DNA of 64,000 bases from Bryobacterales bacterium (GTDB lineage Bacteria > Acidobacteriota > Terriglobia > Bryobacterales > Bryobacteraceae), in NCBI GenBank assembly GCA_963744175.1, contig CAVUSQ010000002.1:62178-126177 (forward strand), written 5' to 3'. The notes beneath the pieces were generated by a model. That model was not told where the DNA came from, did not search any database, and was given only the letters and a program-made list of their open reading frames with translations. The position numbers and the translations under genes were made by a program. Of the stretch, positions 3,821 to 19,728 are shown one piece after another (positions within the stretch are counted from its first letter, which is position 1; every line of letters starts with the position of its first letter).

Positions 3821-3828
3821 CGCTCCAA

Positions 3829-5132
3829 CTACCGCAGAGCGCCGATCGTATACTCGAGCACGGCATACTGGCTCTGATAATCGTACTTTGCGCTGAGATT
3901 CTCGATCTCCGCTTGAGTCAGGTTCAACTCCGCCTGAGTCAACTCCGACGATGGAAGAGAGGCCGAGATTATAGCGGCCTCTGCGCAAGATCGAGCGCCA
4001 GTGCGGCTTGCCGGAGAAATTGAGCGGTCACGTCGATCCGTTGAAACGCGGTGATTGCGCCGCCGTAAGCCACCCGCACGTCGCGAGCAATGATCTGCTG
4101 CTGGTTGCGAAGTCGCTGGTCCGACTCCATCGCCCGCTGATGAGCTGCTTCGCGCCGCGCTGAAAACAAGTGACCGTTGAAGACGGGAATATTGACGTTC
4201 GCGGCAATGCCCTCGTATTCGGCAGGGATCGGCGCAGTGGCGGGGGTGTTGATGTAGGGAATGAATCCGCCCACGGCTTCTACGCTCACGGTGGGTCGCT
4301 TCAGATCCTTTTCAGCTTCGAAGAATTTGTAAGCAGCAGTCGCGCGAAAGACGAAGACTGGCTAGCTCGGGGCGGTTGCTGATGGCTTGTCGCGATCAGA
4401 TCGTCGGGCGTCGCCGGCGGACCGGCGGGAAGGGCTTCTTCGACGAATTGATAATTCGCAGGCTGATCGGAGCCAAGCGCGCGGCCCAATTCCGCGACCG
4501 CTCGCCTGGACGGCCTCTTGGCTCGGATCAGCAGCAGCTTGGCCTCGGAGACATTCACATCAGCGAAACTGACATCGAGCTGCGATTTGAGATTGTTTCT
4601 TGCCAGTTCAGTCACTTGATCGCTGAGGAGTCTGCCGGGCCTCGATGGTTTGTTGCGCCACCTTAATCACCGCCTGGGCGTGCAACACGTCGAAGTAGGC
4701 GCGATTGACTTGCAGCACTACGTCGTAACGCGTGGCTTGCAGAGTCTGCGTGGATGCTTGCGCCTGAAAACGCGCGCTCGCCACCAGGTTCGGAGTGCGG
4801 CCGGAATCGGTGACCAGTTGGTTGACAACAGCGCCCCGCCCGAACCGGTTGAACAGTCGGGAAGCAGTCAGTTCGCCCGCGCCGATTCGCGATAAGTCGT
4901 TAGCCTGCGATCCCGTAATTTCACCGTTAAGCGTCGGGTAATACGCCGCTCGATTGATAACAATTTGTTCGTGCGCGAAATTCGCTTCGTTCTGCGCGCC
5001 CTGGATCTGGGGATGGTTCTTGACAGCGATCGCGACTGCATCCTGTAGCGTAAGCTTCGGGGGAGATTGCGCGAAGGTCGGGCCTGCGGCCAGTGCGAAA
5101 AGGATAGGAAGCTTATTGATTCTGAGTGGCAT
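3829..5132 (-). pseudogene. TolC/OprM-like outer-membrane efflux protein, frameshifted
   Basis: Fragments 4608..5177, 4301..4615 and 3969..4289, plus a 3' piece ending LEYTIGALR* (TAG 3829-3831). Start placed at ATG 5132 (MPLRINKLPILFALAAGPTFAQ signal, AAAGGAA SD). At least 4 frame breaks. Confidence 0.75.
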
Positions 5133-8100
5133 TTCGTTCCTTTCTGCCGTAAACGAGAAGATAAGCGGCCGGAACAATGAACACGGTTAGAAGCACCGAT
5201 GAGGTCAGGCCGCCGATGATGGCGCGGGCCATGGGAGTGTACTGCTCCCCGCCCTCGCCCAGCTTCATCGCCATGGGAATCATGCCGATAATGGTTGCCA
5301 GTGACGTCATGAGAATGGGCCGCAGGCGAACTCTGCAGGCAGTGATCACGGCATCGGCAACTGACAAGCCCTGTTCTTCCAGCTTATGGGCGAAGTCGAC
5401 GATCAAGATGCTGTTGGAGTCGGCGATACCGATCAGCATCAGCACTCCCATCAGACGACATTACGTTAAGAGTCGTGTGCGTCAAAGGCAAAATAATCAG
5501 TACACCTACAAAGCCCATTGGAATCGCCAGCATGATCAGGAACGGATCGATCCAGGATTTGAATTGTGCAACCAGGATGAGGAATAAAAGAATGAATGAA
5601 ATGCCGAAGCCTAGCCCAAAACTCTTGAAAGATTCATCCATGCTATTGACCATGCCCCGCAGAGTCACGCGGATGTTGGAGGGAAGTTTAGCATCCTTTA
5701 TGGTCTCGAGGATGCCGGTGCGGAGTCTTGGCCAGATCCTCGCCAGAGGGAGTGACATAGATATCCACGACGCGCTGAATCTGATAATGATCGATTTCCG
5801 TAGGGGATTGTAGATTAACCAGTTTCACAACCGAATCGAGAGTCGTGGGGGTCTTTGCGTTGGGCGCCCGCAAAGGAATTTGCTTCAGGTCGATCAGGTT
5901 ATGAATGGCGTTTTTTCCGTGCTCGGCATACTGCACACTCAGGAAGTAATCGTTACCAGTCTTATAATCGACCCAGTAGTTAGGCGCAATCATGATGTTT
6001 GAATTCAGTGCCGTGATTACGTTATCCACCACATCTTTCTGAGTGAGTCCCAATTCCCCCGCGTGTACCCGATCGATGTCCAGTCGGACGGACGGGTAGT
6101 TCATGTCCTGCGGAATATAGATCTGATCGACACCGGGAAGCTGGCGAATGCGGCGCGCGAGATCTTGCGCAGTGGCGTAGGTCAGCTTGAGATCGCGGGT
6201 GTTAACCTGAACATCGATAGGCGCAGGCTGCCCCTGATTGAGGATCGCGTCCTGCATGGACCCGCTTTGGAAAGAACGTGCGAACATCCGGGAATTGTGC
6301 TGCCAAGTCCTTCTTGACGCGGTCCATATAAACGAAGCTGCTGCTCTCGTGTCCCTCATTCAGAGCTACTTGTACCGTGGCCATGTACATTCCAGCGTTC
6401 GTCGTATACAAGGAAGAAATATCGTTAACCACGCCGATATTCGAGAGAATCATCTTGAGATCCTTCGGGTCGATATCGTGGCGGATCAGGTCCTCTATCT
6501 TCGCCACGTAGTCGTTGGTAACCTCAATACGCGTGCCAGTGGGGACTTTGACGTTCACGGTAAACTGTCCGGCGTCGGTCTGGGGAAAGAACGCCCGGCC
6601 AAGCAGAGGATAGATCGCGAGACTCGCCACAAAGACTCCCAGGAGGAGCACCAGCGTAAGCGCCGGACGCTTTAGAGCCCGGCGGACCCATCGTTCATAC
6701 AGATCGAGCAGGCCGTTAAATTGGCGATTGAACCAGGCATTAAAACGGGCGCCCCAGGACTTGTCTTCAGGTGCGTCGGAATGTGACTCGCTTTCGCCGT
6801 GCGGCACGGCTTTCAAGAAACGGGAGCAGAACAGCGGGATCACTGTCATCGCGACCACAAACGACGCCAGCAGCGCCAGGCAGAAGGACAGCGCAAGCGC
6901 GGAGAACAGAAACTTACTGACACCGAACAACAGGGTCACCGGGAAGAAGTCGACTACATCGACCAGAGTCGCAGCCAGCACAGCCAGATTGACCTCGGCG
7001 CCGCCCATCGCTGCTGCGACGGCCGGCGTCGATCCCATTTCCAAATGACGATAGATGTTTTCGAGGGATATGACTGAGTTATCGATCACGCGAGAGAAGG
7101 CTAGCGCGAGACCGCTGAGGATCATCGTGTTGATGGTGCTTCCCATCATGAAGAGAACTACAAATGTAGCGAGCGCGGAAATCGGAATCGACAGCAACAC
7201 CGCGCCCGTGGCTCGCATGCTGCCCAGGAACACCAGAATCATGACGCTGGTCAGCACCAGACCGATAACACCTTCATGAAAGACCGTGTTTAATGCCTGT
7301 TTGACAAAGACGGATTGATCGAAGACGATATCGGTCTTCAACTGTGCCGGAAGATCGAACAGATGCTGGACCAAGCCCCGGACGTCGTTCACCACCTGAA
7401 TCGTATTGCTGTCGCCGCCCGATTTCATGATCGGAATATCGGCGGACTTCTGCCCGTCAATACGTACGATGTTGTATTGCAATTGACTGGCGTCTTTGGC
7501 TTCGCCTACGTCTCCGACAGTGACCCAGCGGGTCCCGACGGTTTTGATCGGGCACGTTGTCTAAGTCCTCGACATTTTCCACCAGGCTATTGGAATAGAC
7601 GTAATAGTCGCTGTTGCCGATCTTGACATCTCCGGCGGGCAGGATGAGATTGCTGTTGTTCACCGCGTCGACCACATCCATCACACTCATTTGCCGGGAA
7701 AGCAGTTTGTAAGGATCGACGTAGATCATCGCCTGCCGGTACTTGCCGCCGAACACCGCCGGGATTTCAGAACCTTTCACTACAGCGATTTGATTGCGTA
7801 TTTGAAACTGGGCCAGATCGTGAAGCTGGGTTTCATTCAGTCCTTCGCCCTTGACGGTAACCAGGCACACGGGAAGACTGGAGGCGTCGGATTTCAGTAC
7901 CAGTGGAGGCAAAGTTCCGGGCGGCAGGCGTTTCAAATCGGCGAGTGCAAGATTCGATAACTGGGTCACGTCCGCATCCGCGTCCGTTCCAGGTTGAAAG
8001 TAAGCCTTGATAATGCTCACGCCGAGCAGGGAGCGGGACTCCATGTGATCCATACCACTTGCCTGGGTGAAGAAGCGCTCCAGCGGATTGGTAATATCGA

Positions 8101-8275
8101 CTTCAATGTCTTGCGGCGGCATCCCGCTATAAAAGGTCGCCACGACCACTACCGGCAAGTTAATCGGCGGAAACAGATCGACCGGCATCCGCGACATGGC
8201 GTTGATACCGATGACGGCCAGAGCCAGACAGATCACGACAATGAAATAGGGATTGCGGATTGAAAAACCTGGCAT
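5113..8275 (-). pseudogene. RND (AcrB/HAE1-type) efflux pump inner-membrane subunit, frameshifted
   Basis: Fragments 7457..8275, 6202..7482, 5688..6359, 5384..5758 and 5113..5451 tile an AcrB-like protein (MPGFSIRNPYFIVVICLALAVIGINAMSRMPVDLFPPINLPVV...). At least 4 frame breaks, one at a CCC/GGG run near 7556. Confidence 0.9.
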
Positions 8276-8288
8276 GGGCGATTCCTCG

Positions 8289-9623
8289 CTAGTGCTGCTC
8301 TTCGGGGCTGTCGATATTGCATCAGGTCGAGCGATTTGGGCTGAACCACCTGGCCGGCTTTCAGACTGCTCCGGTCACTGACCACCACCATGTCACCTTC
8401 CTTCAATCCGGAGAGTACTTCCGCATCGGTCGCAGTCTGGATACCCAACACAACGGAGCGGATTTCTATCTTGTTGGACGCATCGACCACGTCCACCGTC
8501 GTCCCATTCGCGGTGTGGTCCACGGCCTGAAGAGGTACCGCCAGCGCATCCTGCTTTATGCTCCAGTTGAATCGTCGCATCGGCGTAAAGCCCCGGCAGC
8601 AGCACGCGCTGTGGATTCGGGACATCCACTTCCGTATGCATCGTGCGGGTGTCTTCCCGTACATCGACGGAGAAGCGCGCTATTTTCCCCGGGAAGGTCC
8701 GATCGAGCGATGAGACCTTCACGCTCACCGGATCGCCGACGTGAATGTATTTGACATAGGTCTCCGGCACCGGAATCACCAGGCGAAAAAGATCGTCCTC
8801 GGAGAGCCGGACGATCGGCATCGCCTGGGTGCTGGAACTGGTTCCGGCCTGCACCAACGCTCCGAGATTGGCGAACCGCTGGGTGATCACTCCGGCGAAA
8901 GGCGCGGTAATTTTGGTATAGTCGAACAAATCCTGATCGTGCTCCCGCTTGGCTTGTGGCAGCGCCAGCGCGCTTTGGGCTGATTGCAGATTCGACTCGC
9001 GAGCCTTCCACTTGCGCGGCCGACGCCAAGGCTCTCGCCTTCAGAATCATCCACTTCCTGCTGGGCGACCAATCCGGGCTTCGATTTCGCGACGTTGTTC
9101 AGTCGATCGAACTGTAGCTGCATCACTTTGTGCTGCGCTTCGACGCGGCCCAATTCGTTTTGGGCGTGCGTAATCTGCTCGCTCGCGTTCTTGATCGCGG
9201 CGTCGTCCTGCCGCAATTGCGACTGCAGTTCGGGAATCTCCAGAGTGGCAATGAGTTGACCCTTCTGCACGTGGGTTCCGTAGTCGACGGGAGATCCTTG
9301 ATATAGCCGGACTCTTTGGCATAGACATCGATTTCCTGGAACGGGACAAGCTCGGAAGACAGCGTCAAGGTCCTCGCCAGTGGCTTCCTGCCGATCTTGA
9401 CAACGCCGACGGAAACCTCAATCGAGCCACCAGCACCGGGATCCCTGGCTTGCACTTTTTCTGTGTTGCCGCAGGAGACCACGACACTCGCCGCAAGGAC
9501 GATTAGGCCAAAGCACACTTTCTTATTTCGGCTCAACGAGGCCTCCAAGGAAGATCGCAGTTCCCTGGCCATTGCCGCAGGCGCTTCGCCAACTCCTCCA
9601 ACGAGAACCCTGAAGAACGGCAA
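8289..9623 (-). pseudogene. RND efflux periplasmic adaptor (membrane fusion protein), frameshifted
   Basis: Fragments 9123..9623, 8887..9270, 8556..9050 (part), 8393..8929 and 8233..8664. Lipoprotein-like N-terminus LAASVVVSCGN. Adaptor motifs: TLEIPELQSQLRQDDAAIKNA (coiled coil) and FDYTKITAPFAGVITQRFANLGALV. Probable end ...PEEQH* (TAG 8289-8291). At least 5 frame breaks. The true start may be the internal Met at 9572. Confidence 0.8.
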
Positions 9624-10265
9624 AAATCAGTCAAGCTCTCGCTCCTCGGCGAGTATCTTGGTAGCCTCTGCCGGTATATCCGCGACAAGCTCCAGCGGAA
9701 CGTTGAGGACCCCATGGCGGTCGCCGTGAAGCAAATCCCCGGAACGAATTTTCAATCCGCCAATCTCGACCGGTTCGCCGAAATCGATGATGTGGGCATA
9801 GGAGTGAGAAACCGAGAGATTCCCGCGAAAACAATTGAAAATTCAAAGCTTTTATCGCCGGAAGGTCGCGCACGGCTCCATTGGTGACGCATCCCACGCA
9901 ATCCAGAGCAAGGGCGATCGAGGCATGAATTTCACCTACAAATGCTCCTAGCCCCGGTTTACCGTCGGCGTCCTGCACCACGATTACCCTTGGCTTGGGT
10001 AGAGATGCCACATAGTGTCCACCAATCCATGCGGTCATAGTAACAGCGATGGGTCATCGGCGGAGACACGGTTCGAATTCGTCCCGTCGCGGCGTAACCG
10101 ACCATCGGAGGCAGATCCGGGAACCGGCAGCGCACCGCGCCGGGAAATGAATCCCTCATTTCGCAGCCGGGCGCTCAGTCTTTCGATCGCGTTCGAGACG
10201 GTACAGGTATCGAATGCTCGCAAACTTTCTAGATCCACGGCAGAGAGACCTTTGCGCGAACTCAT
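9533..10265 (-). pseudogene. RraA-family (RraA / HMG-CHA aldolase-like) protein, frameshifted
   Basis: Fragments 10035..10265 (DLESLRAFDTCTVSNAIERL), 9959..10159, 9631..10038 (VVQDADGKPGLGAFVGEIHASIALALDCVGCVTNGAVRDL) and 9533..9715 tile one RraA-like protein. At least 3 frame breaks. The 3' end is uncertain. Confidence 0.55.
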
Positions 10266-10452: not shown

Positions 10453-11895
10453 ATGAGTAAAATCGACGTGGCGAATTCCGAGCAAGCCAGCCGGGTACTT
10501 TTCAGAAGTTCCCGCATGGCTCTGGTCCTCGGATTTGGAGGTCTCATATCGATAATGGCTCTGGCTGGAATCGACGCGCTGCGATCGCTGCAGCAGTTTC
10601 GCAGGAGCGACGACCAGATCAGACGGCATTATCTTTCTCAAAACCATGTCCTGAACGACATTCGTTCCGATGTACATGTTTCGGGCACTTATGTCCGGGA
10701 CTACCTGCTGGAGCCTGACCGCCAGCGGGGCGAAGCCTATCGGAAAGGTCTCGAAGACTTGAGAAAGCATATGGAGTCGGCGCTTGAATCCTACGGCCAG
10801 CAAGTGGCACCCCCTGAAATGGAGCACTATAAAGCGCTCCGTACAAAGCTGACCGACTACTGGGAAATCCTGACGCCGATCTTCACATGGGACACGGCGG
10901 AGCGGCGGCGCTCCGGCTACGCCTTTCTGCGGGACGAGGTGTTCCCGCGCCGTCAGAATATGCTGGCCATCGCCGATCAGATCGCCAACATCAACGAGCA
11001 GCAATTGACTTCTGGAAACAACCAGGTGGTCGGCCTCCTGCTGAAATTTCAAGCTCGCCTCGTGATAACGTTAGTCGCGGCGCTGGCCCTCGGATTCGGA
11101 TTGGCCGCACTCACGATGTACAGAATTCTGAAACTCGAGGCGCAGGTACATACGCGGTTTGAGGAGGCGACCGAGGCCCGGAGTGAACTGAAGGACTTGT
11201 CGGCGCGTCTGGTCCAGGCCCAGGAAATGGAGCGGCGCGCGCTCTCCCGCGAGCTACATGATGAGGTTGGCCAGTCGCTTTCAGCAGTTTTGATAGAGCT
11301 GCGGAATTTATCGGTTGGACTCGCGACCAAACCCAAAGAGCTTTTGAGCGAACATGTCGAAACCATAAAGACTTTGGTGGAGGGAATGATCCGGGTGGTT
11401 CGTAATATGGCGCTGCTTCTAAGGCCCTCCATGTTAGATGATTTGGGCTTGATTCCGGCCCTGAAATGGCAGGCGCGTGAAGTTTCCAGGCGCACCTCTA
11501 TTGACGCGAGCGTTTCGGCTGAGTTAATTTCCGATGACTTTCCGGATGAGTATAAAACCTGTATCTATCGGGTAGTTCAAGAAGCGCTTCACAACGTTTC
11601 GAGTCATGCTCACGCCGGCAGTGTCCGCATCCGCGTACAGCAGGAACGAGACCGGCTGAGTCTCTTGATCCAGGACGATGGCCAAGGCTTTGACAGCAAG
11701 CAGGTGAAAGGACTGGGATTACTGGGAATCCAAGAACGCGTCACTCGATTAGGCGGGACTTGCACCGTACACTCAACGCCGGGGAGCGGAACGATACTCG
11801 CCATAGAGCTACCGTTTAGTGGCGCACCATTCAACTCTAAGACAAGCAGTATGAGTGAGGAAATGCGTGAAACAAATTCGCATCCTGTTGGCTGA
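10453..11895 (+). CDS. Sensor histidine kinase, HisKA_3 (NarX/LiaS-class) with periplasmic sensor region
   Basis: 480 aa. Two hydrophobic segments flank a ~170-aa region, followed by a coiled coil. H-box LSRELHDEVGQSLSAV; HATPase_c motifs DDGQGFD and GLGLLGIQERV. SD GAGGAAAG before ATG 10453. Confidence 0.9.
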   Translation: MSKIDVANSEQASRVLFRSSRMALVLGFGGLISIMALAGIDALRSLQQFRRSDDQIRRHYLSQNHVLNDIRSDVHVSGTYVRDYLLEPDRQRGEAYRKGLEDLRKHMESALESYGQQVAPPEMEHYKALRTKLTDYWEILTPIFTWDTAERRRSGYAFLRDEVFPRRQNMLAIADQIANINEQQLTSGNNQVVGLLLKFQARLVITLVAALALGFGLAALTMYRILKLEAQVHTRFEEATEARSELKDLSARLVQAQEMERRALSRELHDEVGQSLSAVLIELRNLSVGLATKPKELLSEHVETIKTLVEGMIRVVRNMALLLRPSMLDDLGLIPALKWQAREVSRRTSIDASVSAELISDDFPDEYKTCIYRVVQEALHNVSSHAHAGSVRIRVQQERDRLSLLIQDDGQGFDSKQVKGLGLLGIQERVTRLGGTCTVHSTPGSGTILAIELPFSGAPFNSKTSSMSEEMRETNSHPVG

Positions 11896-12517
11896 CGATC
11901 ACAACGTAATGCGCAGAGGTCTCCGGCTATTGCTCGAAAGCCAGCCGGAGTTCACAGTGGTGGCCGAAGCCGCCGATGGCAGACAAGCGGTCGAACAGGC
12001 GGAGGCGACTAATCCGGATGTGGTGGTGCTCGATATCGCAATGCCGAATCTCAACGGGATCGAGGCCGCTCAGCGCATTATCTCCCAGCGGCCTGGCACC
12101 TCGATTATTTTTCTGAGTATGCATTCGGATGAGGGCTACGTTCTTCGTGCCCTCAAAGTGGGGGCGAAAGGCTATTTGCTGAAGGATTCCGCGGAAGGGG
12201 ATCTCATTGAAGCGATCACTATGGTTCATCAGGGGAAGACATTTTTCAGTCGCGAAATCGGCCGAATGCTGGTTGAGGATTATGTACGGGAAATCAGAAC
12301 GCGTGGGGTCGAGGATAGCTACGAGCTGCTAACTTCACGCGAGCGCGAGATCTTTCAGTTATTAGCCGAAGGCAAGTCGAATAAAGAGATCGCAGGAGCC
12401 TTGAACCTTAGTGCACACACGGTCGAGACACATCGCCGAAATCTGCAGGATAAGCTTAATCTTCATAGCTTCGCCGAACTGATTCTCTACGCAGTGCGGA
12501 AGCGGATTATCTCGTAA
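11867..12517 (+). CDS. NarL/FixJ-family response regulator (REC + LuxR-type HTH)
   Basis: IRILLADDHNVMRRGL...DVVVLDIAMPNLNGIE (REC) and LTSREREIFQLLAEGKSNKEIAGALNLSAHTVETHRRNL (LuxR HTH). The track start 11855 is GTG; I prefer the in-frame GTG at 11867, preceded by GAGGAAA. It overlaps the kinase 3' end. Confidence 0.9.
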   Translation: MKQIRILLADDHNVMRRGLRLLLESQPEFTVVAEAADGRQAVEQAEATNPDVVVLDIAMPNLNGIEAAQRIISQRPGTSIIFLSMHSDEGYVLRALKVGAKGYLLKDSAEGDLIEAITMVHQGKTFFSREIGRMLVEDYVREIRTRGVEDSYELLTSREREIFQLLAEGKSNKEIAGALNLSAHTVETHRRNLQDKLNLHSFAELILYAVRKRIIS

Positions 12518-12588: not shown

Positions 12589-12879
12589 CTAACCTTTTAG
12601 CGCGCGCTCGAGCCGGCTATGCTGCAGCTCGTGGAGAAGGCGCATCACGTTGTATGCACTCAGTTCGACCATCAGTCGCGTGATTTTTTCGTGTTGCTCA
12701 TCGTTTAGATCGCCTTCAACGGATTTCATTGCCGCGACCACGCTCGACTGTTGCTTTTCGAGCTCGGTATCATCGATAACACCATCCGCCATGGCGTCCA
12801 CGAATGCCGACAGGTTTTGTACCTGCTCGTCAATGATCGGCATGTGTGTCTTCTCGTCAAACCAACTTATTCTTGTCAT
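12589..12879 (-). CDS. Small acidic helical protein, last gene of the PspA-ABC-AAA operon
   Basis: 96 aa, MTRISWFDEKTHMPIIDEQVQNLSAFVDAMADGVIDDTELEKQQ... Its ATG (12879-12877) overlaps the AAA gene stop (ATGA). No family recognised. Confidence 0.7.
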   Translation of the reverse strand: MTRISWFDEKTHMPIIDEQVQNLSAFVDAMADGVIDDTELEKQQSSVVAAMKSVEGDLNDEQHEKITRLMVELSAYNVMRLLHELQHSRLERALKG

Positions 12880-14624
12880 AAAATGCCTTTCAATTCGAAA
12901 AAACGGTGTTGCAGACGCTCACGTCCGCCCGGCTCCTGAACTTGCTTGCGGAACGCTTCGGGAAGGAACTCGGCGTCAGTGCATTCGAGCATGGCGGCGA
13001 TCTCCTGCATCTCCTTCTCCAGTCCATCGAGGGATGGAAGAAAGCCCGCCAGCTCGCGTTCGAGCGCCAGCTTGCCGATTCCGGATTCCCCGAGCAAGCG
13101 TCCGCGGCGCGCGGCTCTGGTTACAATTCCCTCAATGTCCGCGCCTGAGAGTCGGCCGGTTAAAGGAACATCGGGAATCTCATCGGGAGTCAACTTGATG
13201 CCGGCCTTTCGGCCCATGGCTTGGAACATCGACCGCAATTCTTCCGCTTGCGTGGGATAAAACAGAGGGATGTGAACCTCCGCACGGCCCTGCCGCTTCA
13301 GGTCGATGGGTAAAAGGTCGGGGCGGGATGTCAGCAGCATCCACAAAATTTTCCCACGATAGCGAGTGTCGCCCATTTGCGCGGCGATTAGGGAAAAGAC
13401 ACGGCTGGAGGTGCCTGAATCGCCCTCCTGCTCGCGATTGCCCAGCGCGGCGTCGGCTTCGTCGATGACCACGACCACGGGCCCCATGGCTCGTAATACG
13501 CCGAGGACGCGCTCCAGGTTCCCCTCCGTTTCGCCGACATACTTGGAGCGGAAATTCTTAAGAACGAGGCAGGGCGCACCCATTTCACCGGCCATGCATT
13601 GCGCCAGAAACGTTTTTCCCGTGCCCACGGGACCGCAGACCAGATAACCCATCGGCAGCGTTTCTGTGTCGCCCCGCTGAAGCAGTTGCGCGTCCTCGCG
13701 AAGGCGCTGCTTCACGGAGGCGTGACCTACCAGGACATCAGTATTCCACTTCGGCTCCATGAATTCGAGCAAGCCGCGGCATTGGCGCTCGATCAGTTCC
13801 TTCTTGAGTCCGCGCATGCGGGGTCCGTCCAGGCGGTGACCAGGTTCGAAGGCAGATTGAATCAGGACGTTGATATCCACGCATGAAATGCCCGCAGTGA
13901 GGCGCGTTAATTCGGCTTCCGAATAATCGGAAGCGAGGTGGAGATCGCGGCCTTCCAACGCATAATGTATAAAATGTGCGCGTGCGGCTTCATCGGGCAT
14001 CGGGACTTCGATGCTGGCGACATAAGGATTCGAAGTGACGCGCTCACTTAGGGCAGCGGCGCTCTCGTCCATCAAAACCATCGCCATGTTGAGCCGTTTC
14101 ACATGCGGACTGGCGGCCCAGTTAAGAAGGGTCACGACCTGTTGGGATGCGGCCGGACTCAGGCGGCCGGGCTCACCGCTGGGCAGGAGAAACGAGGCGT
14201 GGTCGATCAGAATTGCGGCGCTCACGCTTTCCTCACCCGCCATGATGTTGTTCTGCACGAATCGATCGAGGAGCGCAAACGCGGTGGAAGGGTCCTTTCT
14301 GGCCAACGCGAGGTCGCCAACTTTTTCGTTGGCGCGAACCACCATTTCCTTGAGCCGCACGCCGTCACGCCCCGCAAAAGCCCGCAGCCCGCGCGCCAGA
14401 TCGTAATAGAGCACCAGATCCCAGCGGCCGAATACCTGCTCCGCCAGAAAATCGGAAGCGGCTCCATAAGAAGATCCGTCGGCGGACAAGGGAACCAGAT
14501 CGTGCACGTTGCCGTGAACAACAAACAGCGAGGTGGAGCCGGAAAAATACAGCTCCGATAGCTCAGCGGCCCACGACGGGAACCAGGCGGGAATTTTGCC
14601 GTGTTTGTGTTCGGCGGGCGTCAT
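12876..14624 (-). CDS. Classical-clade AAA+ ATPase with degenerate N-terminal ATPase-like half
   Basis: C-terminal module: Walker A GPVGTGKT, pore-loop-like SKYVGETE, Walker B VVVIDEAD, SRH-like LLTSRPDLLPIDLKRQGRAE. N-terminal ~330 aa has no P-loop (LFVVHGNVHDL) but a Walker-B-like AILIDHASF. Start placed at ATG 14624 (MTPAEHKHGKIPAWF), which overlaps the upstream stop (ATGA). The Arg-rich track extension to 14768 is rejected. Confidence 0.85.
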   Translation of the reverse strand: MTPAEHKHGKIPAWFPSWAAELSELYFSGSTSLFVVHGNVHDLVPLSADGSSYGAASDFLAEQVFGRWDLVLYYDLARGLRAFAGRDGVRLKEMVVRANEKVGDLALARKDPSTAFALLDRFVQNNIMAGEESVSAAILIDHASFLLPSGEPGRLSPAASQQVVTLLNWAASPHVKRLNMAMVLMDESAAALSERVTSNPYVASIEVPMPDEAARAHFIHYALEGRDLHLASDYSEAELTRLTAGISCVDINVLIQSAFEPGHRLDGPRMRGLKKELIERQCRGLLEFMEPKWNTDVLVGHASVKQRLREDAQLLQRGDTETLPMGYLVCGPVGTGKTFLAQCMAGEMGAPCLVLKNFRSKYVGETEGNLERVLGVLRAMGPVVVVIDEADAALGNREQEGDSGTSSRVFSLIAAQMGDTRYRGKILWMLLTSRPDLLPIDLKRQGRAEVHIPLFYPTQAEELRSMFQAMGRKAGIKLTPDEIPDVPLTGRLSGADIEGIVTRAARRGRLLGESGIGKLALERELAGFLPSLDGLEKEMQEIAAMLECTDAEFLPEAFRKQVQEPGGRERLQHRFFELKGIL

Positions 14625-15473
14625 TGCGCGACCTTTCGCCAGTCGGCATCGAGGATGGCGGGCGGCTCTTGCATTTGATCCACCACGCCAGTAATGTGCT
14701 GCAGTTCGCGGATTGCCGCTTCGGTGGATTGGACGCTGGCGGCGACGCCTTCGATCTGGCTGGTCCATGCGTCGGGATCCTGGCGATTGACGCTCGATTC
14801 GACCAGCGCTTGAATCTTGGCTTCAATGCGGTCCAGCTCCAGGCGGACGAACTCGGCGTTTTCGCTGGCCTTTTTGTAGTTTTCCAGGCGCAATTCCTGG
14901 GCAGCAACGCTGTCCTCCAAAGAGTGTTTGATACGTTCTTCCTGCGCTCCCAAGCCGGCGATTTTTGCTTTTGTATTTTCGATTCGCGAGCGGATTTCGG
15001 CGTCGTTGGTGGAATGGAGGAAACGATCCAGCCCCTGTTGAGATACGAGCAGGCGCAGAAAAATCCATAGCAAGCGATCGAGGGCGGGAGTGCTCAGGTC
15101 TTCTGACGACGAAGCTTGCTGGCCGCTGACGCCGCGGGCGATCGATTTCATTTCCAGGCAACGCGAGCGCAGTGCGTCGAATCGCTGACGGGATTCCGGC
15201 GGGAGAGAATTCATGATTTCCGCGAGCGATTCGCCTCCGGACGTACCAGGCTGCAATTCCTTATGGACCTGCGCGTCGATCGCGTCGCGGAATTTCGGGC
15301 GGGAAACCAAGCCCTGCCAGGTAAGCGATCTCGCCGGCCAATACCAGTGGGATCGTCGCATCGGGCCACGGGGAAATTGCCGCTGCTGCCGCCGCACCGA
15401 AGAAAAACAGGAGGTTCCAGCGGTAGAGGAAGGCTCGCTTCAAGTACTCCGCGATGCCCGCGGACGTTTTCAC
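14621..15473 (-). CDS. Membrane-anchored coiled-coil protein (one frame break near 15305)
   Basis: The N-terminal hydrophobic part (frame of ORF 15261..15488: KTSAGIAEYLKRAFLYRWNLLFFFGAAAAAAISPWPDATIPLVLAGEIAYLAGL) continues in the frame of ORF 14621..15397 (VSRPKFRDAIDAQ... long heptad-like C-terminus). The switch sits at a GGG/CCC run. The GTG start at 15473 overlaps the ABC ATPase stop (GTGA). Confidence 0.65.
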
Positions 15474-16276
15474 TTGCGGACCTCGCACTGCTCCACGATG
15501 TCGCGAATGGCGAACACGGTTTCGTTGAAATGAGCTTCACGCTGCATCTGGCGGGCCGGGCGGTCGGGGCTGGGAAGCTCCATTTCCTTAATGATAGTGC
15601 CAGGAGAGCCGGACAAAATGTAGATGCGGTCGCCCAGGAAAACGGCTTCCTCCACCGAATGCGTCACGAAGAAAACGGTGGCTTCCTGCTCTCGCCAAAG
15701 GCCGATTAGCAGATCCTGCATGTTAAGGCGAGTGGCGGGATCGAGTGCGCCGAACGGCTCGTCCATCAAAATGATGTGCGGCGAGAGGATCAATGTCCGC
15801 GCGATCGCAACCCGCTGGCGCATGCCTCCCGACAATTGATGCGGGAATTTCTGCGCGTCCCGCAAAGGGTTAAGACCCACTTTGCCAATCCACTCCCGTG
15901 CCCGCGCGTCGCGTTCCTTGCGCGATACGCCGGCGCATTCCAGGCCGAAGGAGATATTGTCGAGCACGGTGCGATTGTCAAACGAAGTGTAGTCCTGAAA
16001 GACCATGCCGCGGTCGGGTCCAGGACCTTCTACCGATTTGCCCATCACCTTTACCGTTCCGGTGGTCGCCGGAAATTGCGGGCGCAAGCCTGCGATAAGA
16101 CGCAGGATGGTGGACTTGCCGGACCCCGAGGGCCCTAATAATGACACAAACTCGCCGCGCTCCGGCTTGTTGGGAACTTGAAACGTGATGTCGCGGATTG
16201 CAGGGGTGACTCCGCCATCGGGAGCCTCGAAGTCCTTGCTTACTCCTTTGAATTCGACGATCAGTTCTTCGGGCAC
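15470..16276 (-). CDS. ABC transporter ATP-binding protein (NitT/TauT, SsuB/TauB/NrtD-like)
   Basis: Walker A GPSGSGKST, signature LSGGMRQR, Walker B ILMDEPFGALD, H-loop FFVTHS. Start placed at GTG 16276, 2 nt after the permease stop, rather than the track start 16324. Confidence 0.9.
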   Translation of the reverse strand: MPEELIVEFKGVSKDFEAPDGGVTPAIRDITFQVPNKPERGEFVSLLGPSGSGKSTILRLIAGLRPQFPATTGTVKVMGKSVEGPGPDRGMVFQDYTSFDNRTVLDNISFGLECAGVSRKERDARAREWIGKVGLNPLRDAQKFPHQLSGGMRQRVAIARTLILSPHIILMDEPFGALDPATRLNMQDLLIGLWREQEATVFFVTHSVEEAVFLGDRIYILSGSPGTIIKEMELPSPDRPARQMQREAHFNETVFAIRDIVEQCEVRK

Positions 16277-16278
16277 GC

Positions 16279-17106
16279 TCAGTCTGAGTCCTCTCGATAA
16301 GGAAAGAGGCCATGTTGGACCCATCCGAGAAAGCGGTCGATTCCGTACGCCAGGGCGCCGATCACAATCAGAATTAGAATGATGTGCTCGGACATGCCTC
16401 GTCGCTGACTGGTCGATAGAAGGTACCCTAAGCCATGCTCGGCGTTAATTAATTCGGCGAGCATGATGTAGCCGAAAGCTAACCCGAATAGCGAGCGGAG
16501 GCTTTTATAAATGTCGGGGAGCGCGAGCGGCACGAGAACCTTTCGGATCACTTGCCACCGTGACGCGCCTAGAGTTGTCGCGGTCTCCACATAGCGGTCC
16601 GGAACCGATGTGATGGCGTGGACCGAGTCGGAATATACGAACGGCACGCAAGCGATGAAAATGAACATCACTTTCTGCGTTTCCTCGATGCCGAACCAGA
16701 GAATGGTTAAGGGGATCAGCGCTGCCACAGGGATATTGCGCGCGAATAGTGCCACCGGCATAACCGCGGCTTCGAGCACCCGCCACGATCCCGCGGCGAT
16801 CCCCAGAGGGACACCTACCGCAATCGCCAAACCAAATCCGGCAAGCACTCGGCGCAGCGTTGCGATGATGCTATCGAGCAAGCCTCGCTCATACCATAGA
16901 GGTTTGAAACTTCGCCCTACTTCGAGAGGTGACGGTAGAATTACCGGCGAGACCCAGCGCTGTTCGGGCGTCGCGCCGAACGTCGCGAGGAACCAAAGCG
17001 CGAAGATCATTCCGACCGCGCCTGCTCCAATCAGCCATCCAGTGCGCGGGGCGGGTGGAATGCGAAGATCGAAAAGGCCGGGGCTTTTCGCATCGGAGCG
17101 GGCCAT
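16279..17106 (-). CDS. ABC transporter permease (BPD_transp_1; SsuC/TauC/NrtB-like)
   Basis: 275 aa and multi-TM. EAA-like loop ETATTLGASRWQVIRKVLVPLALPDI. Its start lies 1 nt after the binding-protein stop. Confidence 0.9.
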   Translation of the reverse strand: MARSDAKSPGLFDLRIPPAPRTGWLIGAGAVGMIFALWFLATFGATPEQRWVSPVILPSPLEVGRSFKPLWYERGLLDSIIATLRRVLAGFGLAIAVGVPLGIAAGSWRVLEAAVMPVALFARNIPVAALIPLTILWFGIEETQKVMFIFIACVPFVYSDSVHAITSVPDRYVETATTLGASRWQVIRKVLVPLALPDIYKSLRSLFGLAFGYIMLAELINAEHGLGYLLSTSQRRGMSEHIILILIVIGALAYGIDRFLGWVQHGLFPYREDSD

Positions 17107-17107
17107 T

Positions 17108-18685
17108 TTACTTGGTAGCTTCCAACGGGTAGACCTTCACTTCTACGCGGCGATTCTTGGCCTGGTTCAAAGGATCGTTCGGATCCGCGGGGCGAGCCCA
17201 CCCCATTCCCGATACGCTGAACTGATTCGGCTGAAGCGTGGGGAACTTTTTGAGAATCGCTTCCTTCACCGCGTTAGCCCGGTTTCCGGAAAGCTCCTGC
17301 ACAGCCGATTCAGGCACGCGATCCTTCATCGAGGAATCCGAGTGACCTTCTATAATGATGCGCGCAGCGCCGAACTGTCCGGCCATTTTGCCGATCTCCT
17401 CCACCACAAACTTTGCATTCGGGTCGTAGAGTTGCTCAGTGGCCTTGCCGTCTACGGTTTCAGTAACCTGCTTCGAGAGGTCCCACGAGTTTGGATAAAA
17501 GTGGATCACGACAGTCTTGGTAAGGATCTCATCGGACTCGCCTTGAATCGCCGCAGCCGTGGCGGGAGCGAACTGGACGGCGTATTCATTTTTCTGGCTC
17601 GAATATTTCGCTTCCTTCCCGAGCTTCTGCAAAACGCTGAAGTCCATCACCTGATCGAACTCCGTCTTGTCGGAAACCGCTCCAATGCGTTTGTACAAGT
17701 AGTACGCCGTGTTCCAAGTCCGCTCAAAATTCGTTGGATTATTCTGATTCAGAAAAAATTCCTGATTCTCGGCCCAATTCGTGGAATGCGCGTCGCCCTG
17801 CATACTGAGCGCGTCCGCCTCGGGAATGGAGTACCCAGCCGCCATCAGCTTAGCCGCGGCAGCCTTGCTGTTCTGATCCTTCAACGATTCCATGCCATCG
17901 AAAATCCCGCGCACCAGGCCTTCAATAATGTCGGGATTGTCCTTCGCGAAGTCGGCTCGAGCAAACCAGATGTCGGCGATCAGCTTGTTGGCGGTCGTCG
18001 TGGTCACCAGCATACGATTACCTTTGACCTTCGCCAGGTTGTAAATATCCGGCGACCAGCTCACAGCTCCGGCGATTTTCTTATCGGCGTTGAAAGCAGC
18101 CGCGGCCTGGAAAGCGTCCTGGGTGAACTTGAAGTTCACCTCCGATGGCTGCACGCCCCCATTGATCAGTGCGTTGAGCACGAAGAAATGGGACGGCGAG
18201 TTCTGCGCGAGAACAATAGTCTTGCCGCGCAAATCGGCGATACTCTTGACGGTATCGCGCACCACAATTCCATCGCCGCCATTGGACCAATCCACCTGCT
18301 GATAAATTCGCGGCATCACGCGTGAATCTTTGTGCAGCGCCTCCATGAACAGAGGAACCATATCCAAAGTCCCCCAGCCGACGTGGACATTGCCTGCCGC
18401 GTAAGCGTCGCGCATCGCCACCGGATCGTCGATCAGGATGAGCTCAACTTTGAAGTCCTTACCGCCGGATGTTTTCCAGACCTTGCCGGCCTTGAATCCA
18501 TTGTTGGCCAGGATGATCGGCGCCCAACCCGCCCAAACATTGATCGCAAAGCGAACAGTCCGGTCCGCCAGCGGCTTGTAACTTGAAATACCCTGCACCG
18601 GAGGAAGCTTCGCCGCCGGAACATATTTATACTCTTTCGCCGTCGTGATCCCGCTGGTATCGGGAGCTTCGGTCGTGGTGGTCAT
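17108..18685 (-). CDS. NMT1/SsuA-like substrate-binding protein fused to a C-terminal OmpA-like domain
   Basis: 525 aa. The N-terminal two-thirds resemble nitrate/sulfonate/bicarbonate-type binding proteins (RFAINVWAGWAPIILANNGF...). The C-terminus carries OmpA_C-like motifs (IIIEGHSDSS, LSGNRANAVKEAIL, NRRVEVKVY). This ORF has no signal peptide or TM segment. Confidence 0.85.
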   Translation of the reverse strand: MTTTTEAPDTSGITTAKEYKYVPAAKLPPVQGISSYKPLADRTVRFAINVWAGWAPIILANNGFKAGKVWKTSGGKDFKVELILIDDPVAMRDAYAAGNVHVGWGTLDMVPLFMEALHKDSRVMPRIYQQVDWSNGGDGIVVRDTVKSIADLRGKTIVLAQNSPSHFFVLNALINGGVQPSEVNFKFTQDAFQAAAAFNADKKIAGAVSWSPDIYNLAKVKGNRMLVTTTTANKLIADIWFARADFAKDNPDIIEGLVRGIFDGMESLKDQNSKAAAAKLMAAGYSIPEADALSMQGDAHSTNWAENQEFFLNQNNPTNFERTWNTAYYLYKRIGAVSDKTEFDQVMDFSVLQKLGKEAKYSSQKNEYAVQFAPATAAAIQGESDEILTKTVVIHFYPNSWDLSKQVTETVDGKATEQLYDPNAKFVVEEIGKMAGQFGAARIIIEGHSDSSMKDRVPESAVQELSGNRANAVKEAILKKFPTLQPNQFSVSGMGWARPADPNDPLNQAKNRRVEVKVYPLEATK

Positions 18686-18686
18686 C

Positions 18687-18818
18687 TCATCTTTTGCTGA
18701 CCTTGACGCTCTTTACTCCGGGCAGCGCGCCCAAACGCCACAGCGCTACGCCGACCAGAGCCAACACGACAGCCAGAACCGCCAAATAAAACGCAGGCTT
18801 CGGATTTCCGCTAGCCAT
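18687..18818 (-). CDS. 43-aa single-TM mini-protein, or the detached membrane anchor of the binding protein
   Basis: Below the track size cut-off. MASGNPKPAFYLAVLAVVLALVGVALWRLGALPGVKSVKVSKR*, with GAGGTG SD upstream. The stop TGA lies 1 nt before the binding-protein ATG. Removing one A from the AAAA run at the 3' end would fuse both ORFs in frame. Confidence 0.45.
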   Translation of the reverse strand: MASGNPKPAFYLAVLAVVLALVGVALWRLGALPGVKSVKVSKR

Positions 18819-18853
18819 ATAAAATTTTCACCTCAATTGTGTTTGCGAACGGC

Positions 18854-19618
18854 CTAGTTGTGGGACGTCTGCGTAGTCTTCTCGTCGACTACCGCCGGTC
18901 CCAGGTCTTTGGTGGAATCGGCCAGCTTCGTCGTTTCCGGCGAACGCAATCCCAACTCCGCCTCAAACTGCGTGAGCGCATCTTCGGCCATCGCCTTCTC
19001 GACTCTCTCCTCGGCTTGGATCGACTCCATGCCTTCCTGCGACAAATCGGCCGCGACCCGCACCTTCGCGCGGTTCTTGTCGATCTTGCCCTGGATCACC
19101 TCTTCGATCTTGCCGAAATCGGTGGTGATGTCCATGTTGAAGGACTGCGCCAGTTTCGCCACCTCGGCTTCCGCCGAACTCATTTTCAACTCGGCATCGT
19201 ACTTCTGAATTTTCTCGCGAACGTCGCCCAGCTTCTTAGTCGCATGCTGGATCTTCTTCAGGTTGTTCCCATATGCCTCCTCATGCATGGTGAGCTGCTG
19301 CTCATTCGCGGCAAGATCCTTCTTCGCCTTCTGCAACTCCAAGGCAAATTTCGCCGCGGCATCGCGCTCCCCCGCTTTCAGATACGTCTTGGTTTGCGTC
19401 TCCAGTTTCTGGACGTGATCCCTGCCCACGGCCACTTGACGCGAGACGCGCTCCACCAACGCCCGATAAGTCTCCAACCCCTGCCGCCCGTCCTTCATCT
19501 GCTCGACAGCGGTATCGTATTCATACTGCATCTGCGCAATCGGATCAGCTTCCCAGAAAACATTGGCGATCTTATTCAATTGCGCACGAAATGCGCTCCA
19601 GAATTTCCCCAAAATCAC
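18854..19618 (-). CDS. pspA: PspA/IM30/Vipp1-family protein (ESCRT-III superfamily)
   Basis: 254 aa with a GTG start and AAGAAGG SD. The N-terminus FWSAFRAQLNKIANVFWEADPIAQMQYEYDTAVEQM matches the PspA_IM30 helix-0/helix-1 pattern, followed by long coiled-coil helices. Confidence 0.85.
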   Translation of the reverse strand: MILGKFWSAFRAQLNKIANVFWEADPIAQMQYEYDTAVEQMKDGRQGLETYRALVERVSRQVAVGRDHVQKLETQTKTYLKAGERDAAAKFALELQKAKKDLAANEQQLTMHEEAYGNNLKKIQHATKKLGDVREKIQKYDAELKMSSAEAEVAKLAQSFNMDITTDFGKIEEVIQGKIDKNRAKVRVAADLSQEGMESIQAEERVEKAMAEDALTQFEAELGLRSPETTKLADSTKDLGPAVVDEKTTQTSHN

Positions 19619-19728
19619 GCCGTACCTTCTTTCTCGTTTCTTCGACCCTCATTCTACTACTACGATGACCGCCGCGAGACTGTTCCCTACTCGCGTCAAT
19701 CGGCTAAAATCAAAGAGTTTAGAAGCGC

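Follow-up and report, generated by a model that had tools for sequence, protein, structure and literature searches.

A conserved operon joining a PspA-family protein, an ABC transporter, a coiled-coil membrane protein and a tandem AAA+ ATPase in a Bryobacterales bacterium, with a possible role in envelope maintenance

The window analysed in this work is a 64,000-nucleotide stretch of DNA from a Bryobacterales bacterium (assembly GCA_963744175.1, contig CAVUSQ010000002.1, positions 62,178 to 126,177 of the forward strand), and the system in question is a compact operon on its minus strand, at 12589-19618. The intact unit consists of seven co-oriented genes: pspA; a gene for a solute-binding protein (SBP) carrying an OmpA-like domain (SBP-OmpA); the permease and ATPase genes of an ATP-binding cassette (ABC) transporter; a gene for a coiled-coil membrane protein (TMCC); a gene for a classical AAA+ ATPase; and a gene for a small protein, P96 (Table 1). 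The region was singled out by an earlier reading of the same DNA (the original prediction), which compared it to the ESCRT-III and Vps4 machinery and held that the combination belongs to no known Psp system. The same operon architecture had in fact been published by Ravi et al. (mSystems 2024; PMC11237479; bioRxiv 2020) in the passages of section 18, Text S2.2 and Table S3, and the claim stands only in so far as the literature search found no experimental paper on a PspA/ABC/TMCC/AAA+ operon. The window is therefore a further example of a computationally described system, in which the reading of the ATPase is refined to a tandem Cdc48-type rather than a Vps4-like protein.

Table 1. Genes and signals of the operon and its borders, in window coordinates
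Feature	Coordinates	Strand	Description
pspA	18854-19618	minus	254-aa divergent PspA/IM30 family protein, GTG start
SBP-OmpA	17108-18818	minus	569 aa when intact; predicted membrane-anchored NMT1/SsuA/TauA-like SBP with C-terminal OmpA-like domain
Permease	16279-17106	minus	BPD_transp_1, NitT/TauT type, Pfam 82.5 bits
ABC ATPase	15470-16276	minus	268 aa, GTG start at 16276, Pfam ABC_tran 98.6 bits
TMCC	14621-15473	minus	283 aa when intact; two N-terminal transmembrane helices, coiled coil, C-terminal PPxIL
AAA+	12876-14624	minus	582-aa tandem classical AAA+; D1, D2 and helical C-terminal extension
P96	12589-12879	minus	96-aa acidic, probably helical protein; conserved last gene in most lineages
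P174	19729-20253	plus	174-aa accessory gene, divergent from pspA, outside the region of the original prediction
ECF-sigma-type promoter-like element	19661-19686	minus	GGAAC-N17-CGTA; 3' end 43 nt upstream of the pspA GTG
Stem-loop	12519-12593	minus	Directly after the P96 stop, between convergent genes

Translation of the open reading frames (ORFs) of the window placed the minus-strand ORFs where the original prediction had put them, and its domain labels were borne out by Pfam profile search. The junctions were re-read as a 35-nt gap between pspA and the next gene, a 1-nt gap between the SBP and permease genes and a 2-nt gap between the permease and ATPase genes, followed by three overlaps, GTGA from the ATPase gene to the TMCC gene and ATGA both from the TMCC gene to the AAA+ gene and from the latter to the P96 gene, every one of them as it had been described. 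Inside the cluster neither promoter-like matches (4, against 3.4 expected from shuffled sequence) nor terminator-like matches (11, against 9.5) were in excess; no Rfam family matched the region, and no attenuator hairpin was seen in the pspA-SBP gap (z = 0.16). The view of one tightly packed unit with stop-start coupling and free of internal promoter or terminator signals is thus supported by the junctions and by signal counts at the shuffle level. The count of eight genes was wrong, since it falls to seven once a split SBP gene is rejoined.

Two genes of the unit are interrupted in the window, and their frames were repaired by reference to the closest relative found (locus L001; 92% nucleotide identity, with AAA+ proteins 98% identical), which carries one 569-aa SBP-OmpA gene and one 284-aa gene for the coiled-coil membrane protein. 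Alignment to L001 reveals an extra G near 18697 that breaks the SBP-OmpA frame into a 43-aa ORF (18687-18818) and a 525-aa ORF devoid of its own signal sequence, and its deletion yields a 569-aa protein nearly identical to that of L001. The short ORF, previously taken for an independent transmembrane gene, is the N-terminal membrane or signal anchor of the binding protein and not a separate gene. A second extra G, at about 15314-15316, was overlooked in the original prediction, where the coiled-coil membrane protein was described as a single ORF: in the window GTG 15473 opens a 70-aa frame ending at 15261, and the coiled-coil part lies in a different frame (14621-15397). Its deletion yields a TMCC of 283 aa, nearly identical to that of L001 and of a length that fits the homologues, all 120 of which, among the matches listed, span 277-295 aa. 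The ABC ATPase, at 268 aa, agrees with the L001 gene call as it stands.

Both frameshifts are most likely assembly errors, because the neighbouring genes for resistance-nodulation-division (RND) efflux components (window 3000-10000, minus strand) are full of similar lesions, with about 30 uncompensated single-base insertions and about 15 short ORFs, and are intact in L001, where they encode an outer-membrane factor, a 1051-aa ACR_tran pump and a membrane-fusion protein. The state of the RND region itself suggests an assembly prone to indels, massive recent decay being the less likely cause. Programmed frameshifting was considered for the two frame breaks and rejected, since the extra bases are absent from the relatives and indels are frequent elsewhere in the window.

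The co-occurrence of these genes is strongly conserved. A scan with an alignment of the AAA+ N-domain found 140 relatives, from which 80 loci were kept; the ORFs of these loci were searched with profiles built from the window proteins, and a locus was counted for a gene only if its contig extended to the position concerned. About 75 species-level genomes keep the order PspA, SBP-OmpA, permease, ATPase, TMCC, AAA+, the carriers being Acidobacteriota (Bryobacterales, Solibacteraceae, Terriglobia and others), Gemmatimonadota and Myxococcota, together with one metagenome-assembled genome (MAG) of the Spirochaetales and one of the Planctomycetota. PspA is present in 51 of 52 assessable loci, SBP-OmpA in 53 of 54, the ABC ATPase in 67 of 68 and TMCC in 74 of 75, the sole exception being a Bdellovibrionales MAG (L082), also among the loci, which has an AAA+ orthologue (600 aa, L082:4872-6674) with neither PspA, TMCC nor transporter; as read by eye only, this orthologue sits between ORFs of 978 and 796 aa. 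Identity of the AAA+ N-domain across the loci is at least 49%. The tight junctions recur as well, with a 4-nt permease-ATPase overlap in 42 of 65 relatives and a 4-nt TMCC-AAA+ overlap in 43 of 80, and the only variable spacer is that between pspA and the SBP gene (2 to 196 nt). The operon occupies a stable chromosomal context and has been inherited vertically across whole orders. The co-occurrence across related genomes for which the original prediction called was accordingly found, with the order kept across at least five phyla.

The start codon of the AAA+ gene is confirmed by full-length homologues of 575-602 aa. The Pfam match (PF00004, 83.6 bits) is confined to residues 328-453, within a domain (D2; about residues 300-510) in which Walker A (GPVGTGKT), Walker B (VVVIDEAD), the pore loop KYVGE and an SRH-like (second region of homology) segment, TSRPDLLPIDLKRQGR, can be read. 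The features of the classical AAA clade, namely PF00004, Walker A and B, the aromatic KYVG pore loop and the SRH, are consequently all found, and the classical-clade motifs that had been claimed are indeed readable in the translation. The sequence matches in the PDB (Cdc48/VCP/AFG2/Rix7, E about 1e-32) likewise cover only D2 (residues about 293-507), and residues 1-308 give no Pfam match even at E <= 10. In the AlphaFold2 (AF2) model the region preceding D2 (D1; about residues 10-280) is an alpha/beta domain with a helical lid behind it, modelled with high confidence (predicted local distance difference test, pLDDT, about 90), and a Foldseek search with the whole 582-residue model retrieved p97, Cdc48, Rix7, NVL and Msm0858 at E values of about 1e-13 to 1e-14. 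Because the P-loop position of D1 reads HGNVHD and the Walker B position LIDH, this domain should be unable to hydrolyse ATP. Judged by model and motifs, the protein is a type II (tandem p97/Cdc48-type) classical AAA ATPase with a D1 predicted to be dead and a D2 predicted to be active.

The comparison of this ATPase with Vps4 holds as an analogy but not as kinship: it possesses two AAA domains and no MIT domain, D1 folds as a degenerate AAA domain, and the CdvC model of NCBIfam gives 45 bits where 650 would be needed. Neither is it a full member of the Cdc48/p97 family, with which the tandem fold itself is common, since there is no N-domain of that kind, D1 begins at about residue 10 and lacks Walker A and B, and the TIGR01243 score is 80 bits against a cut-off of 803.

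The product of pspA matches PF04012 (PspA_IM30) over its full length and above the gathering score (49.1 bits against 33.9; residues 1-221 on profile positions 1-217 of 220), which places it in the family, while no match to the solved PspA/Vipp1 sequences in the PDB was obtained with either the single sequence or a 13-sequence profile. The orthologues encoded in the operon are 57-77% identical between phyla and have conserved both the N-terminal helix and a C-terminal motif, LGLRSPETT...KDLGP. Both this C-terminus (18854-18960) and that of TMCC (14621-14670; PPxIL(D/E)) keep their motifs across phyla. The resemblance of these tails to the ATPase-recruiting motifs at the C-terminus of ESCRT-III proteins is limited to position. 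When the PspA and TMCC families were aligned by hhalign, the best match likewise fell on the tails, without being significant.

The transporter components have the composition of a type I importer of the NitT/TauT type, with the permease, the ATPase and the SBP all above their Pfam cut-offs, the SBP by an NMT1 match of 35.1 bits. The Walker A, signature and Walker B motifs of the ATPase are intact. The OmpA-like domain of the SBP (PF00691, 45.7 bits against a cut-off of 27.2) displays the motifs EGHSDS, NRANAV and NRRVEV in translation and is predicted to bind peptidoglycan; among solved structures, TauA/SsuA come closest to the binding domain and MotB/OmpA/TssL to the C-terminal one. No transporter product reached an NCBIfam equivalog cut-off: the best matches of the permease (SaoP, TauC, NtrB) and of the ATPase (TauB, SaoA, NtrCD) all fell below those of their families.

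TMCC belongs to a family of 912 clusters at 50% identity. Lys/Arg-rich segments at the N-terminus and after the second transmembrane helix flank its membrane part, and the helical portion of about 220 residues is therefore predicted to be cytoplasmic. The AF2 model is all-helical with a mean pLDDT of 65. In the Ravi et al. study this slot is labelled "SIG+TM+Snf7" and "divergent Snf7" (PMC11237479), a designation which could not be reproduced here with tests that are low in sensitivity. Among 65 diverse TMCC members there was no Snf7 or PspA Pfam match at E <= 1, and profile searches of PDB sequences gave no match. Alignment by hhalign with a small Snf7/CHMP set of unverified sequences reached a probability of 1%, and with the PspA of the operon 0.1-0.2%, where the positive control, PspA against Snf7, itself reached only 10.8%. 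A Foldseek search with the TMCC model, of pLDDT 65 as noted, returned nothing beyond generic matches to coiled-coil and BAR-like proteins, at E > 0.1.

The modularity of the system was approached through nine distant TMCC representatives, the first six of which were also checked with profiles. In seven of these nine loci TMCC is directly preceded by the ABC permease and ATPase genes, and SBP-OmpA lies beside it in five and probably six (in L091 the upstream gene is cut at the contig end), while PspA is found beside TMCC in four and AAA+ in three; one TMCC (L090) is an orphan. On the basis of these contexts TMCC would be the hub of the system and the ABC transporter its closest partner, which is apparently a new finding, and PspA with AAA+ would form a second module. 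As PspA and AAA+ are missing from several of the distant loci, the ABC-TMCC module can presumably work without them. Individual loci show further arrangements. In L083 a triad of PspA, SBP/VWA and TMCC occurs without permease, ATPase or AAA+, the middle gene being an SBP_bac_11+VWA fusion (L083:5605-8855); in L086 (L086:1205-6414) a 230-aa VWA protein occupies the usual pspA slot; and in L087 (L087:1457-8855) the order is PspA, AAA+, SBP-OmpA, an 88-aa ORF, permease, ATPase and TMCC. The PspA gene of L087 is in three ORF pieces, and this metagenome contig is probably frameshifted too.

Upstream of pspA lies a promoter-like element of the extracytoplasmic function (ECF) sigma type. GGAAC and CGT with such spacing are the typical form of an ECF-sigma promoter, and by the definition applied (-35 GGAAC, -10 CGT, 16-17 nt spacing) both motif and spacing are present, with no cognate sigma factor identified. 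The pattern GGAAC-N17-CGTA occurs in the window and in all 10 related loci of its clade, with a spacer that varies in sequence, where the background rate across the loci is 0.027 per 360 nt. Taken by itself, the window has two matches where 0.93 would be expected, which is not surprising. The -10 part lies within a 17-mer, TCGTAGTAGTAGAATGA, that is invariant in the window and the 10 clade loci and that, being longer than a -10 element requires, may also hold a regulator site or the transcript 5' end. This 17-mer is listed at 19642-19658 and was also seen in L001, L003-L005, L007-L009, L012, L014 and L015. The element is best described as a putative ECF-sigma-type promoter, apparently new, as it does not figure in the passages of Ravi et al. 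named above, and the envelope-stress role suggested in the original prediction fits its conservation. At the other end, the stem-loop after P96 (minimum free energy -32.8 kcal/mol, z-score -2.74) is matched in folding by one of 200 shuffles and likely marks the transcript end, where it would act as a terminator that has no U-tract.

Next to this end lie two plus-strand genes (10453-12517) that run towards the operon, one for a histidine kinase with 4HB_MCP_1 and HisKA_3 domains and one for a response regulator of the NarL/GerE type. This pair is of the LiaSR class and is also present in L001. It was rejected as part of the system and is probably not its regulator, since the kinase was found in none of the 80 related loci and the regulator in only two.

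Two further genes are associated with the core in a lineage-dependent manner. P96 follows AAA+ in 34 of 38 Acidobacteriota loci, 11 of 13 in Myxococcota and the single Planctomycetota locus, and in none of the 16 Gemmatimonadota loci; alignments display the conserved pattern ADG...EL...QH...ELSAY, and the family has no significant match in Pfam or the PDB. In eight Gemmatimonadota loci (L036, L039, L048, L057, L060, L075, L077 and L079) the AAA+ gene was seen to be the last, P96 and P174 being missing and the downstream genes locus-specific. As for P174, 10 related Acidobacteriota loci share the arrangement of the window, with the gene upstream of pspA and divergent from it; in seven Myxococcota loci its homologue is the next gene downstream of P96, on the operon strand, and in L085 it comes directly after TMCC. 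These two or three distinct linked positions argue for a functional tie. The motif HLFGHTVQWN is invariant in P174, whose relatives, about 1,100 in number, are without exception annotated as hypothetical; the resemblance of the protein to Pfam Peptidase_M78/IrrE is very weak (E = 0.2 only), and no match was found in the PDB. The family profile was iterated on trimmed alignments, as the untrimmed profile drew in ORFs antisense to pspA. P96 as a conserved seventh gene and P174 as an accessory member are apparently new with respect to those Ravi et al. passages.

The published account (PMC11237479) consists of two sentences and a table row, with OGG56892.1 of Ca. Handelsmanbacteria as the example, and, judged from that row of Table S3, the gene order and the domain architectures of the six core genes are identical to those of the window. 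Ravi et al. draw the same analogy with ESCRT-III (Snf7) and Vps4 and propose ATP-dependent membrane remodelling linked to solute transport. They also report a PspA-AAA+ dyad without TMCC or transporter in other bacteria, for example Clostridium, and, in Table S3, an Archangium variant with only PspA, an SBP-type protein and TMCC (PMC11237479). These passages make no mention of P96, P174, the ECF-type promoter or a TMCC-ABC core.

Taken together, the packing of the genes, the synteny, the domains, the AAA+ architecture, the TMCC contexts, the promoter and the linkage of P174 suggest a modular envelope-maintenance system expressed as one transcription unit from the ECF-sigma-type promoter to the terminal hairpin, a reading that we hold with middling confidence, being about equally prepared to see it upheld or overturned; the same functional conclusion in those passages of Ravi et al., independently reached, is counted in its favour. 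The N-terminal helix of the SBP would anchor it in the inner membrane and the OmpA-like domain would tie it to peptidoglycan, so that together with permease and ATPase it would make up an ABC transporter of the NitT/TauT type, fixed beneath the cell wall. TMCC, an inner-membrane protein whose coiled coil would face the cytoplasm, would be the hub that partners this transporter and may serve as the membrane docking site for PspA and AAA+, as LiaI and PspBC do for LiaH and PspA. PspA would polymerise on the stressed membrane, and a hexameric AAA+ might use the D2 pore loops to pull subunits from PspA and/or TMCC assemblies for recycling or remodelling, with the dead D1 ring as a docking platform. 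The conserved C-terminal motifs of PspA and TMCC are, speculatively, candidate docking peptides, and P96 and P174 may be lineage-variable cofactors.

Several observations weigh against this interpretation. The contacts between PspA, TMCC and AAA+ are hypothetical, the AAA+ protein carries no MIT domain or any known ESCRT-III-binding module, and TMCC showed no detectable ESCRT-III similarity in the tests run, of which the control was low in sensitivity. Every transporter match stayed below its family cut-off, and a ligand is not identified by them. Several of the distant TMCC-ABC loci do without PspA and AAA+. The ECF-type promoter is clade-specific (15 of 53 loci) and other clades lack it. Two genes are frameshifted in the window, and if these lesions are real this copy is not functional.

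A stronger version is offered as a tentative proposal, which we think is appreciably more probably wrong than right: an ATP-driven ESCRT-III-type machine in bacteria, in which D1 docks on the tails of PspA (LGLRSPETT...KDLGP) and/or TMCC (PPxIL), depolymerises these proteins and is coupled via TMCC to the peptidoglycan-tethered ABC transporter. If true, it would amount to a trans-envelope device linking the state of cell wall and periplasm to remodelling of the inner membrane, and it would contradict the view expressed in reviews that a Vps4-like partner of PspA appears to be absent from bacteria (PMC7619361; PMC10936438).

The envelope-maintenance reading has to be weighed against four others. 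The transporter may be a sensor rather than an importer, so that the tethered SBP and the ABC proteins sense a ligand or the distance or integrity between wall and membrane, TMCC relays the ATPase cycle to PspA recruitment and AAA+ activity, and uptake is incidental. The double tethering of the SBP, by membrane anchor and OmpA domain, is unusual for a nutrient-scavenging protein, and the position of TMCC immediately after the ABC ATPase in seven of nine distant contexts, the variants that keep PspA, an SBP-type protein and TMCC without permease and ATPase (L083, and Archangium in Table S3 of Ravi et al.) and the failure of every transporter product to reach an equivalog cut-off all point the same way; yet the importer domains of permease and ATPase are of the ordinary type I kind and their motifs are intact, this transporter class is not known to signal to a coiled-coil protein, and the present data do not separate sensing from transport. 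We consider the sensor unlikely, though a serious candidate.

Somewhat less probable still is that AAA+ is an extractor acting, like Cdc48, Msp1 or FtsH-type unfoldases, on membrane proteins that are damaged or stalled, among which may be the transporter or TMCC itself, with PspA sealing the leak instead of being the substrate. The closest relatives of the ATPase (Cdc48/p97, AFG2, Rix7, Msm0858) are all unfoldases or segregases, the aromatic pore loop is intact, the AAA+ gene overlaps that of TMCC and not pspA, and a standalone orthologue exists in L082 without either PspA or TMCC. Against this, PspA is present in 51 of the 52 loci anchored on AAA+, and the dyad reported in the Ravi et al. passages, with TMCC and transporter absent, ties the ATPase to PspA.

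That the cluster is an anti-phage defence island, in which the "phage shock" protein PspA and the ATPase act in abortive infection or membrane defence, is very improbable, for the weak PADLOC matches which suggested it (AAA+ to IetA at 54 bits, the OmpA domain to ZorB, the ATPase to mad3) are generic domain similarities that fit no defence-system architecture, there is no nuclease or toxin-like component, and the chromosomal context is stable and vertically conserved across whole orders; membership in a PADLOC system was accordingly rejected. Chance adjacency of a nutrient ABC importer and an unrelated PspA/AAA+ pair, which the separate occurrence of the ABC-TMCC module and the PspA/AAA+ genes in distant TMCC loci might suggest, is already disfavoured to the point of being barely credible by a gene order kept in about 75 species-level genomes of five phyla, by 4-nt overlaps at module boundaries and by L087, where the order differs and all parts are still together.

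For the disassembly of PspA/Vipp1 polymers in bacteria, this operon is the most obvious place to test a classical AAA+ ATPase in that role; it could also reveal the way in which a machine of this kind is connected to periplasm and cell wall. As the idea has already been published in a comparative-genomics note, the contribution of the window is limited to confirming the conservation, correcting the anatomy, namely seven genes, a tandem AAA protein and two extra conserved genes, and indicating tractable hosts, with cultivable carriers among relatives of Paludibaculum, Gemmatimonas, Anaeromyxobacter or Haliangium. It offers a clean case in which ATP-driven remodelling of PspA in bacteria can be tested, and is not a discovery.

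Among known systems, ESCRT-III with Vps4/CdvC of archaea and eukaryotes resembles the operon in uniting a gene of the ESCRT-III superfamily, here pspA, with a classical AAA ATPase with pore loops in one operon, and some archaeal ESCRT loci also hold an SBP gene, ProX (PMC10936438). The ATPase of the window differs from Vps4/CdvC by the absence of MIT and of the Vps4 C-terminal domain and by its two AAA domains, and is nearer to Cdc48/p97. The Psp (PspFABC) and Lia (LiaIHGFSR) systems share with it a PspA-family effector, small membrane proteins that could recruit PspA, and likely a stress-responsive regulation, and TMCC may be the analogue of LiaI or PspBC. They differ in that no product scanned matched PspB, PspC, PspF, LiaI or LiaF in Pfam or NCBIfam, the NarL-type two-component system next to the operon shows no conserved linkage with it, and the AAA+ protein of the operon is of the classical-clade unfoldase type and not an NtrC-type enhancer-binding protein like PspF.

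Cdc48/p97/VAT and the mycobacterial Msm0858 match the AAA+ protein in the tandem D1-D2 fold over the full length and in D2 at E about 1e-32; the operon protein, in contrast, has no N-terminal double-psi barrel or substrate-recognition domain, its D1 is devoid of Walker A and B, and it is encoded in a membrane-associated operon. Finally, the NitT/TauT importers (TauABC, SsuABC, NrtABCD) agree with the transporter in binding-protein fold class, permease family and ATPase family, from which the operon departs by scores far below the equivalog cut-offs, by an SBP with a transmembrane anchor and an OmpA-like domain, and by a coiled-coil membrane protein of its own, whose gene is translationally coupled to that of the ATPase.

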